Part shown: positions 1,725-4,241 of the stretch, piece after piece | How the letters are laid out: every line of letters begins with the position of its first letter | Position numbering within the stretch: position 1 is the first letter of the stretch | NCBI GenBank assembly: GCA_964413905.1 | Contig: CAYPUG010000003.1 | Location: forward strand, 17,896 to 59,599 | Direction: 5' to 3' | Origin: an uncultured Anaerolineae bacterium | GTDB taxonomy: Bacteria > Chloroflexota > Anaerolineae > JAADDB01 | DNA: 41,704 nt | The notes under the pieces: generated by a model | Database searches by the model: none | Seen by the model: the letters and a program-made list of their open reading frames with translations, nothing else | Told to the model about the DNA's origin: nothing | Made by a program: the position numbers and the translations under genes

Positions 1725-4241
1725 ATGCGTAAATTGAAGTGGTTTCCTCTCGTCGCGGTCCTCATTATTGCCGCCTTGGTGTTGGCCGCGTGTCCGAAAC
1801 CGACCCCTGAAAAGGTGGTCGAGACCGTGGTCGTTACCAAGGAGGTAGAAAAAGTCGTCACAAAGGAGGTGGAGAAGGTCGTCACCAAAGAAGTCCAGGA
1901 ACAGGACCAGTTGGACAAGTGGATGGCCAAAGGGAAGATCGTGGTCTCCACCGACCCGAATTATCCGCCTCAGTCCTTCCTCAATGATAAAGGGGAACTG
2001 GACGGATTTGATGTCGAAGTCGCGAAGGAAGTCGCCAAGCGTCTTGGTTTAGAATTGGAGTTCGTCACTCCCGATTGGGATCTCATCACCGCGGGGAACT
2101 GGGGTGGTCGTTGGGATATCAGCATCGGCTCTATGACCATTACCAAGGAGCGCATGGAGCGTTTGTATTTCACCGCGCCTTACTACTTCACCCCGGCCCA
2201 ATTCGCGGTCCACAAGGACAGCAAGGCCGAGACGTATGAGGACTTGAACGGCAAGAAGATCGGCGTCGGCACCGCGACCACCTATGAGGATTACCTGAAC
2301 GGCGTCCTCGAACTGGTGGGCGAGGAAATCTTGGTGCCGCCACCGCAGAACGTGGAAGTCGTACCCTACTCCACCGACGCGGAGGCCGTGCAGGACCTGG
2401 CCCTGGGCGACGGTGTCCGCCTAGACGCGGTCCTCACTTCCTTGACCGTGGTGGAGAACGCAATCAAGGAAGGCGTGCCCATCAAGAAACTGGGTGACCC
2501 GGTGTACTACGAGGACTTGGCGTTCGCACTTGACAAGTCCGCGGGGCCCGCCGACAAGGCGCTGGCCAAGTTGAACGAAATCATCGCGGGTATGCACGCG
2601 GATGGCACCCTGTCCGCGCTCTCCATGAAGTGGTTCGGCGTGGACCTCACCAAGAAGGTCGCGCCTAAGGCGATGAAGGAAGCGGGCATGGAGCAGCCGA
2701 GTACAGGCGAGGCAGCCGGCATCCCCGCCCCGAACCCGGATGCCAAGAGCCTGCTGCGGGGCGTGGAGAAGGTGGATGACTACACCGTCCGCCTCTACCT
2801 GAACCGGCCCAACGCGTCCCTCATCAACACCCTGGGTATGAACAACTTCGCGATTATGTCCCCGGCCGCCATCGAAAAGTACGGCCCGGACATCTTCAAG
2901 CACCCGGTAGGTACGGGGCCCTTCAAGTTCGTGGAGTGGATCCCCAACGACAAGATCACGTTGGAGCGCAACGACGATTACTGGGGTGAGCCCGCGAAGC
3001 TAAAGACTCTCGTCTTCCGCTCCATTCCGGACAACACGGCCCGCTTCCTGGAGCTGCAGGCCGGTACCATCGACGGCATGGACAACCCCAACCCGGATGA
3101 TATGCCCGTCGCGGAGAAGGACCCCAACATCCAGGTGCTCCTGCGGCCGGCCTTTAACGTGGGTTACCTGGGTATCAATCAGGCGCACAAGCCTTTCGAT
3201 GATGTGCGCGTGCGCAAGGCCATTGCTCATGCCATCGACAAGAAGGCCATTGTGGATGCGTTCTACAGCGGCCTGGGCGAGCCGGCCAAAGAATTCATGC
3301 CCCCCAGCCTCTGGGGCTACAACCCGGACATCGAGGACTACGCTTACGACCCCGCGAAGGCCAAGGAACTCCTGGCCGAAGCCGGCTATCCCGATGGCTT
3401 CGAGACCACCCTGTGGGTGATGCCGGTGCCGCGACCCTACTTCCCGCAGCCGCAGCAGGTGGGCGAAGCGATCCAGCAGATGCTGGCGGATGTGGGCATC
3501 AAGGCCAAGATCGTGACCAAGGACTGGGGCACCTACCTGGACGAGGTGGCCGCGGGCAAGGCCGACCTGTTCATGTTGGGCTGGACGGGCGACAACGGTG
3601 ACCCGGACAACTTCCTCTGTGTGTTCTTCTGTGGCGGTGACAACTCCTTCGCCCAGGGGCCGCCGGATGAGGAACTGCATCAGTTGCTCCTCAAGGCCCA
3701 GTCCGAGACGGACCAGGCCAAACGCGAGGAGATGTACAAGGAAGCCAACGCCATGATCCATGACATCGTCCCCGGCGTGCCCGTGGTGCATACCAAAGTG
3801 CCTCTCTTCTTCAAGAAGACTATTAAGAACTACATCCCCAGCCCCATGAGCATTGCCCGCTGGGATCTGGTCGAGAACGAGGCCGGCGATACGGCCATCT
3901 TTGGTCGTGGCGGTGACTCGGTGAAACTCGACCCCTCCGATGCCACCGACGGCGAAAGCTTGAAGGTGACGGCGCAGATCCTGGAGGGATTAGTCAAGTA
4001 CAAGCCGGGTACCACCATCCCTGAACCGGGCCTGGCCGTCTCCTGGGAGGCCTCGGATGACGGGTTGGTGTGGACCTTCCACCTGCGCAAGGGCGTGAAG
4101 TTCCACGACGGCACCGACTTCAACGCGGACGCGGTTGTGTACAACTTCATGCGCTGGTGGGATCCGAATCACCCGGCGCACTTCGCGGACTGGGCCTTTG
4201 ACTACTGGGCCTACATGTTCGGCGGGTTCAAGGGAGAGTAA
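1725..4241 (+). CDS. Lipoprotein ABC substrate-binding protein: SBP_bac_3 (polar amino acid type) domain plus circularly permuted SBP_bac_5 (DppA-like) domain
   Basis: RBS AAGGAGG then ATG 1725. Lipobox LAAC and VVTKEVEK repeats. Family 3 motifs [31 protein letters not shown]. Family 5 motifs [24 protein letters not shown], and at the C-terminus LDP..., [27 protein letters not shown]. Confidence 0.93.
   Translation: [838 protein letters not shown]

Follow-up and report, generated by a model that had tools for sequence, protein, structure and literature searches.

Binding proteins that serve ATP-binding cassette (ABC) importers represent a textbook fold and a workhorse of biosensor design, in which trial and error is the route to circular permutants. 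Engineered permuted periplasmic binding proteins accept new chain ends in surface loops once their native termini have been joined; these laboratory products derive mostly from maltose-, ribose- and amino-acid-binding proteins. Several binding domains can also share a single polypeptide, as in GlnPQ (6h30), whose binding domains belong to one family and are fused to the permease. Here, we describe a natural permutant of another branch of the fold, cluster C. It is encoded by a lipoprotein gene in a stretch of 41,704 nucleotides (hereafter the window) from an uncultured Anaerolineae bacterium (assembly GCA_964413905.1, contig CAYPUG010000003.1, positions 17,896 to 59,599). Unlike GlnPQ, this protein combines binding domains of different families, a family-3 domain that is closest to those of GlnPQ and a family-5 (DppA-type) domain whose two segments stand in swapped order. 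With a probability of roughly 0.85, we conclude that the family-5 domain is a genuine natural circular permutant of the DppA-type fold and a likely dipeptide receptor for the DppBC permease.

The closest described relatives of this domain are the DppA proteins of Escherichia coli and Yersinia (1dpp, 1dpe, 5f1q and 8z1y), which provide both its best sequence match (E-values of 5.4e-110 to 1.5e-106) and its best fold match. The likeness extends to the arginine and aspartate that clamp the dipeptide, to a 12-residue motif and to the DppB/DppC partners, which are encoded downstream in the window. In contrast to DppA, the window domain carries the equivalent of DppA residues 151-528 first and that of residues 29-143 second, is fused behind a family-3 domain in a presumably lipid-anchored protein and misses the NCBIfam cut-off for DppA. 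In a study on the Dpp transporter, DppA R383 is reported to bind the carboxylate and D436 the amino group of the dipeptide by salt bridges, the double mutant R383D+D436R does not bind dipeptides, and E41 and R42 of the DppB scoop loop are the partners of these two residues once the transporter complex has formed (PMC12136057).

Natural permutation has a precedent in cluster B. According to its description, the glucose-binding protein Tp0684/MglB-2 of Treponema pallidum (TpMglB-2) is a natural circular permutant with the canonical N-terminal strands at its C-terminus; it is a tethered lipoprotein, its homologues share its topology and the label 'Cluster Bc' was proposed for them (PMC4990184). 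The permuted part is only 13% identical to its canonical counterpart, and acquisition from another gene was considered (PMC4990184). The window protein resembles TpMglB-2 as described there in being a natural permutant of an ABC-transporter binding protein and a tethered lipoprotein. It differs in that TpMglB-2 is a cluster B (type I) sugar binder whereas the window domain belongs to cluster C, and in that both window segments are clearly homologous to canonical relatives, with 57-66% identity to the nearest ones. Every match that the permuted domain has in PDB or Pfam belongs to family 5/cluster C, none of them to the MglB-type proteins of cluster B; the window permutant and the 'Cluster Bc' proteins are therefore analogous and do not form one family. 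For family 5/cluster C, no description of a natural permutation was found in the full-text literature, a coverage that leaves out most subscription journals and supplements.

Segment order of the family-5 domain

The gene occupies an open reading frame (ORF) of 855 amino acids (aa; 1674..4241, forward strand) that is unbroken, with no internal stop or frameshift, and residue numbers refer to the frame of this ORF throughout. The parts on which the argument turns are as follows.

1725..4241, forward strand: lipoprotein gene, 838 aa, family-3 domain followed by the permuted family-5 (DppA-type) domain (ORF and Pfam); stop codon at 4239-4241
2748..3887, forward strand: family-5 domain, main segment (residues 359-738), equivalent to E. 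coli DppA 151-528 (HMMER against 8z1y_F and 5f1q_A)
3432..3434, forward strand: Arg587, aligned with DppA R383 (alignment)
3591..3593, forward strand: Asp640, aligned with DppA D436 (alignment)
3888..4238, forward strand: tail segment, residues 739-855, the canonical N-terminal ~117 residues, equivalent to E. coli DppA 29-143 (second HMMER stretch; BLASTP against 120 homologues)

The Pfam profile SBP_bac_5 (PF00496) matches the protein with 385.2 bits against a gathering score of 32.4 (E-value 4.2e-115) in two separate stretches, the better of which places residues 358-657 on profile positions 62-366 of 368. Since the match begins at position 62, the family-5 domain starts in the middle of the profile. 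The main segment opens with SLLRGVEKV at residue 359 (nucleotide (nt) 2748), the tail opens with DTAIFGRGG at residue 739 (nt 3888) and the protein ends in GGFKGE. In a HMMER comparison of the 497-aa domain (residues 359-855) with E. coli DppA (8z1y_F, 535 aa), query positions 2-371 match chain positions 151-528 and query positions 381-487 match chain positions 29-143. Both parts of the fold are thus present and, once put back in canonical order, the two segments yield a single colinear alignment across DppA 29-528. Their E-values against one PDB chain (1e-89 and 5e-14) are far beyond chance, all 91 PDB sequences matching at E <= 1e-10 are family-5 binding proteins, and the 5f1q and 8z1y chains, whose two alignments were inspected, have the normal segment order. 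Hidden Markov models (HMMs) of the segments detect exactly one main and one tail hit in the window protein. The canonical N-to-C order of the SBP_bac_5 parts is replaced by its reverse, main segment (359-738) before tail (739-855).

The position of the cut can be read from relatives of normal order, in which the two segments are contiguous: tail 51-163 and main 163-533 in P0008, with ...YMFGGFP|GIIQKVEK at the boundary, and ...FGGFKGEG|SVIEGIK in P0092. Because the segments abut in these relatives, the cut sits in one loop, and nothing was lost or repeated. At the other junction, the native C-terminus ..WDLVENEAG continues into the native N-terminus through ~3-4 linking residues, which are included in the end of the main segment (..VENEAG). 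At the level of sequence, the window domain therefore has what defines a circular permutant, namely two homologous segments that are swapped, unduplicated and joined through their native termini. An initial annotation, made from the letters of the window, had recognized the start in mid-fold at 2748, the cut in a single surface loop with nothing obviously lost or duplicated and the near absence of a linker between the native ends, all in agreement with these data. It had also placed the canonical N-terminal segment last, correctly as to the order; the segment begins at 3888, one codon after the 3885 given there. Linear profile models split such permuted proteins into two partial hits, and consequently they are under-scored in annotation. 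A PNP(D/E)AK linker preceding the new N-terminus was considered as a relic common to all permuted proteins and rejected, being present in only 14 of 97.

Predicted fold

Residues 343-855 were modelled by AlphaFold2 with an alignment of 58 permuted homologues (A1, described below). The predicted domain forms a single compact globule with a mean predicted local distance difference test (pLDDT) of 93.3 and a predicted template modelling score (pTM) of 0.90; the blocks at the junction reach 93 and 98, and the sole weak internal stretch is a loop at model residues 311-320. Foldseek retrieves DppA structures as best matches (5f1q, 1dpp, 1dpe and 8z1z_F), with template modelling (TM) scores of 0.62-0.70 and root-mean-square deviations (rmsd) of 2.1-4.0 over ~390 columns of the main segment, to which this sequential aligner is confined; the best superposition of the main segment on DppA has a TM score of 0.70 and an rmsd of 2.1 over 386 columns. 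The model matches DppA in fold and in binding cleft. Alternatively, separate molecules could complete one another's fold, each lending its tail to the main segment of a neighbour in a domain-swapped dimer or chain; any permuted or split domain has this option in principle, and nothing specific speaks for it here. However, the join between the native termini is short and conserved in position, and the monomer model is confident over the junction, which makes such swapping extremely unlikely compared with a self-contained permutant.

Recurrence across organisms and contig support

A search of a database of 5.8 billion proteins returned a product 100% identical to the 838-aa protein (P0001) and many homologues, of which the best 120 were classified: the tail follows the main segment in 58, and 62 have the normal order. 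The profile built from the 58 permuted sequences (A1) was then run against 1.84 billion cluster representatives (50% identity), and the best 150 of these were sorted with segment HMMs: 88 have the normal order, 41 the same permutation and six a cut at another place, the other 15 being multi-copy or of different forms. The 90%-identity cluster of the window protein holds 23 members; 12 of the 15 listed, measuring 835-838 aa, retain the permuted order. The arrangement is kept in sequences down to ~30-40% identity, with many invariant positions, and the C-terminal boundary is constant, the extension past the tail having a median of one residue in 98 permuted proteins.

Three of 80 loci from named species genomes (L010, L011 and L020) are permuted, all from Anaerolineae/Anaerolineales metagenome-assembled genomes (MAGs) of different projects; the remaining 77 have the normal order and are mostly from Bacillota. 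An apparent match of all 80 loci to residues 14-513 was discarded as a union of pieces when re-analysis returned these 77 as normal. The phylum was further sampled with 300 other genomes, in which one colinear match from query residue <=48 to >=492 identifies at least 38 permuted genomes among the matches listed, 21 of the 33 from the same class and 17 from three other family codes (the unpublished genome G227 is counted in the denominator only). That so many related bacteria carry the same rearranged form marks it as a variant that is natural, real and conserved, not as an error.

The assembly that contains the window is of metagenome type and has 192 contigs, among which a chimeric join of fragments from one or two ordinary dppA-like genes, or faulty gene calling, might mimic a permutation. 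Among the sequencing runs, X1 yields one contig spanning 2500-4184 with zero differences, and contigs of run X2 span 2500-3005 and 2976-4500, so that both junctions are bridged, although both runs containing the stretch may be its source. Against an artefact stand these contigs, the continuous reading frame and the recurrence of the same order in 57 other proteins of the nearest 120, in 41 of 150 representatives, in at least 38 of 300 genomes and at three MAG loci; the probability left to it is vanishingly small. Two further runs, X3 and X4, contain only short conserved pieces of the stretch and are uninformative on habitat. In all four runs, contig depth rises 5- to 100-fold over 4041-4174, and unrelated short contig pieces are confined to 4068-4126; the jump stems from other organisms in the samples, whose family-5 genes contain the conserved FHDGT.FNADAV motif, and is not a feature of the permuted gene.

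The swapped order might alternatively mark a gene in decay, left over from a tandem pair of dppA-like genes as a first copy truncated at its 5' end and the start of a second one, and non-functional or in the course of being lost. Head-to-tail fused forms do exist in the subfamily, and the tail stops exactly at a domain-internal loop and is followed by a stop codon. A remnant is nevertheless very unlikely: the arrangement is conserved down to ~30-40% identity with the clamp arginine and aspartate invariant, the frame is free of frameshifts and internal stops, the predicted fold is confident and compact, and the C-terminal boundary is constant throughout the clade. A related possibility raised in the initial annotation, that the tail begins a second, truncated domain while the first has its own N-terminal segment, does not apply, since a family-3 domain and a linker lie upstream instead. 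The checks suggested there, namely realignment of the re-ordered segments to DppA, structure prediction, a search for homologues of the same order and inspection of the junctions in read data, all came out in favour of a permutant, with the proviso on the source of the two bridging runs given above. The permutant reading is thus supported and its case was understated: the two-domain fusion with a permuted C-terminal half, the large family and the other cut sites in the subfamily had been missed.

Putative ligand residues and permease partners

Arg587 (within MPVPRPYFP) and Asp640 align with DppA R383 and D436 and are invariant in the 58 permuted sequences (R245 and D298 in A1 numbering). The window protein also keeps the exact 12-residue DppA motif that contains Asp640. 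Its gene is followed by a methylase gene and two permease genes.

4316..5236, forward strand: DNA methylase gene (Pfam N6_N4_Mtase, 7.9e-48)
5240..6244, forward strand: dppB-type permease gene, scoop-loop E41-R42 at 5360-5365 (full-length alignment to E. coli DppB 8z1v_A, 8.3e-98; Pfam)
6365..7375, forward strand: dppC-type permease gene (Pfam BPD_transp_1, 5.5e-36; OppC_N, 1.1e-12)

Over its whole length, the downstream DppB can be aligned with its E. coli counterpart (8z1v_A), MAGER falling on MAGER, and E41-R42 are kept in place. At the homologous locus L011, the same fusion gene precedes dppB and dppC, with dppB directly after it and no methylase gene between. In the window, the methylase gene, which NCBIfam models relate weakly to adenine methyltransferases, has the appearance of an insert in the operon; the window ORFs scanned revealed no restriction partner.

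The Opp/Dpp-type ATPase genes of the genome number six and form three pairs. The one on contig C116 (L090, 5782-7793) sits after a sugar-type ABC system and has no adjacent Dpp permease. Contig C45 (L089, 4831-6675) encodes a polar-amino-acid-type permease and an ATPase with no adjacent binding-protein gene, and the genome holds two family-3 domains in total. The C45 and C116 loci are candidate partners acting in trans with the family-3 and the permuted family-5 domains.

From these elements, a mode of action can be proposed. The protein would be a membrane-anchored lipoprotein whose single chain carries two binding modules, each independent of the other. The chain of the permuted module starts at the strand that normally follows mature residue ~118, runs to the canonical C-terminus, crosses by ~3-4 residues to the canonical N-terminus and ends after the canonical first ~117 residues. 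A dipeptide would be captured between the lobes, most likely clamped by Arg587 and Asp640, and handed to the DppB/DppC permease encoded downstream, with ATPases probably supplied from elsewhere in the genome. We infer ligand and permease docking; within this scheme, transfer of dipeptides from the window protein to DppBC is well supported, and transfer of an amino acid from the family-3 domain to the C45 system is only plausible.

A number of observations weigh against this conclusion in one or another of its parts. The place of the tail in three dimensions is supported by the confidence of the model (pLDDT and pTM) only, because the structural aligner covers the main segment. Most of the permuted clade has GWMADYPDATNF in place of the 12-residue DppA motif. 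The NCBIfam DppA equivalog NF043070 is matched in two stretches with 396.8 bits, below its cut-off of 1005, and the ligand may therefore differ from that of E. coli DppA, though a linear profile cannot score both permuted segments as one and the test is biased against a permutant; none of the NCBIfam models gives a colinear match to the permuted domain. The methylase gene separates the binding-protein gene from dppB, ending 4 nt before the dppB start, and the operon includes no ATPase genes. The window itself may derive from both of the runs that bridge the junctions, X1 and X2, and no RNA run is found among those listed as containing the stretch. Finally, a single origin of the permuted proteins is not settled, as detailed below.

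Some of these points would suit a functional permutant that is not, or not only, a Dpp receptor and that binds another ligand or acts as a sensor or tether. The missed NCBIfam cut-off, the lack of ATPase genes in the operon and the clade members in which the domain stands behind Ser/Thr kinase, caspase+FHA or TIR modules are compatible with such a role. On the other hand, the gene heads a dppB-dppC cluster both in the window and at L011, the exact 12-residue DppA motif and the arginine of MPV.RPY are kept, and so are E41-R42 of the DppB scoop loop. We consider a role other than dipeptide reception unlikely and retain that of a dipeptide receptor for DppBC.

Remaining features of the gene and its neighbourhood

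The N-terminal half of the protein and the signals that precede it comprise the following features.

1712..1717, forward strand: Shine-Dalgarno-like AGGAGG, 7 nt 5' of the ATG at 1725 (read from the sequence)
1725..1793, forward strand: putative signal peptide, ending in the lipobox-like LAAC with Cys40 (read from the sequence)
1830..1888, forward strand: tandem repeat of a 24-nt unit in 2.5 copies with 82% matches (score 83 in Tandem Repeats Finder)
1938..2639, forward strand: family-3 (polar amino-acid type) substrate-binding domain, residues 89-322 (Pfam SBP_bac_3, 3.8e-37)
2640..2747, forward strand: inter-domain linker, 36 aa, residues 323-358, ending in PNPDAK (pLDDT <50 at model residues 312-330)

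The ATG at 1725, preceded by AGGAGG, is the likely start codon, and the motif LAAC suggests a lipobox. The 24-nt repeat encodes the (V)VTKEVEK units of the linker that joins the lipid anchor to the first domain. This family-3 domain exceeds the gathering score of PF00497 (127.4 bits against 26.4), and the solved structures closest to it are amino-acid-binding proteins, the GlnPQ binding domain 6h30 (1.3e-29) and AncQR. An AlphaFold2 model of the full-length protein, built with 34 sequences, has a pLDDT of 87.5 and a pTM of 0.64; the blocks of the family-3 domain range from 77 to 96, and values of <50 are confined to linkers, at model residues 23-52 and at 312-330. The low-confidence linkers and the pTM of 0.64 point to two independently folded domains on a flexible chain.

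Farther downstream on the reverse strand, the window encodes a glutamate/leucine-type dehydrogenase (9423-10763) and an M3 oligoendopeptidase F-like peptidase (12116-13906), neighbours that fit a peptide and amino-acid scavenging neighbourhood. At L011 (10637-11953, forward strand), dppB and dppC are followed by a third permease gene, in which an N-terminal DUF11 is fused to BPD_transp_1.

Origin of the permutation and other cut sites

In a quick tree of the 120 classified proteins, whose segments were re-ordered, the 58 permuted proteins form one side of a branch (Shimodaira-Hasegawa-like approximate likelihood ratio test, SH-aLRT, 96). A wider sample of 269 units, from which eight partial or complex proteins were left out, gave a careful tree on a 79-row subsample. 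In the latter, deep branching is unresolved, the permuted label needs three changes and a single change is found in only 2% of bootstrap trees; the approximately unbiased (AU) test does not reject one permuted clade (p 0.395). FastTree placed a clade of 11 normal-order proteins and the two tandem units of P0123 inside the permuted clade, which suggested reversion; the corresponding supports in the careful tree are 42-54. Given the AU test and the unresolved careful tree, no reversion is claimed.

The results on other cut sites are firmer than those of the trees. Six further complete permutants, lipoproteins with signal peptides, belong to the same DppA-like subfamily and are cut in about four other loops.

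P0220: cut near window residue 402
P0138: cut near window residue 504
P0172, P0145 and P0226: cut near window residues 573-578
P0130: cut near window residue 660, the low-confidence loop of the model

P0172 and P0130 are nested in the permuted clade (supports 99/74 and 100/99), and P0145 is sister (100/99) to a normal-order protein with an insertion in the same loop. P0138 and the normal-order P0139 share 78-80% identity in both swapped blocks and resemble each other in signal peptide and C-terminal anchor. For four of the six, the 90% cluster counts three to six members, with the order kept in all full-length members; P0130 and P0220 are singletons. The P0138 cluster includes a protein from a Candidatus Methanofastidiosia MAG.

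The same subfamily contains head-to-tail proteins of two to four copies (P0123, P0191, P0199, P0186, P0126, P0157, P0229 and others). Such fused multi-copy forms are what permutation by duplication followed by truncation predicts. On this route, a head-to-tail fusion of two DppA-like domains would have been followed by loss of the N-terminal segment that came first and of the main segment that came last. We moderately favour this origin. Some predicted proteins with two to four family-5 domains are very long (P0126, 2754 aa; P0157, 2843 aa; P0129, 3461 aa; P0263, 4308 aa; also P0199 and P0229), and P0129 has an internal permuted unit.

Nature thus supplies a large and diverse family of permuted DppA-type domains together with further permutants cut at other loops, the fused multi-copy forms being the intermediates predicted by the duplication model and one permuted/normal pair being still ~80% identical. 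The evolutionary route to circular permutation and the loops of the fold that tolerate new termini now become testable, as do the effects of moved termini on tethering, on permease docking and on fusion to other modules.

Additions at the N-terminus are much commoner in the permuted clade than among proteins of normal order: extensions of at least 150 aa are found in 32 of 98 permuted and four of 150 normal proteins, rows that are not phylogenetically independent. Among 30 long proteins scanned, the N-terminal additions are family-3 domains, Peripla_BP_6 or both; a Ser/Thr kinase (P0150 and P0151), caspase+FHA (P0183) or TIR (P0221) precedes the permuted domain in others, which suggests that it serves there as an extracellular sensor module. 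Taken together, these data allow a broader proposal, to which we give slightly less than even odds: circular permutation would have a natural hot-spot in the DppA-like branch of cluster C, where it would have occurred independently at least five to seven times in about five different surface loops, arising from head-to-tail concatenated genes of the kind still present in the subfamily. In the largest permuted clade, the displacement of the N-terminus into an extra domain may have let the domain serve as a C-terminal module of multi-receptor lipoproteins and of transmembrane Ser/Thr-kinase, TIR and caspase-FHA signalling proteins.

Triple receptors are encountered in both segment orders. P0015 (1132 aa) is composed of Peripla_BP_6, SBP_bac_3 and a permuted SBP_bac_5, and P0147 (1148 aa) contains the same three families in another order, a normal SBP_bac_5 followed by Peripla_BP_6 and SBP_bac_3.

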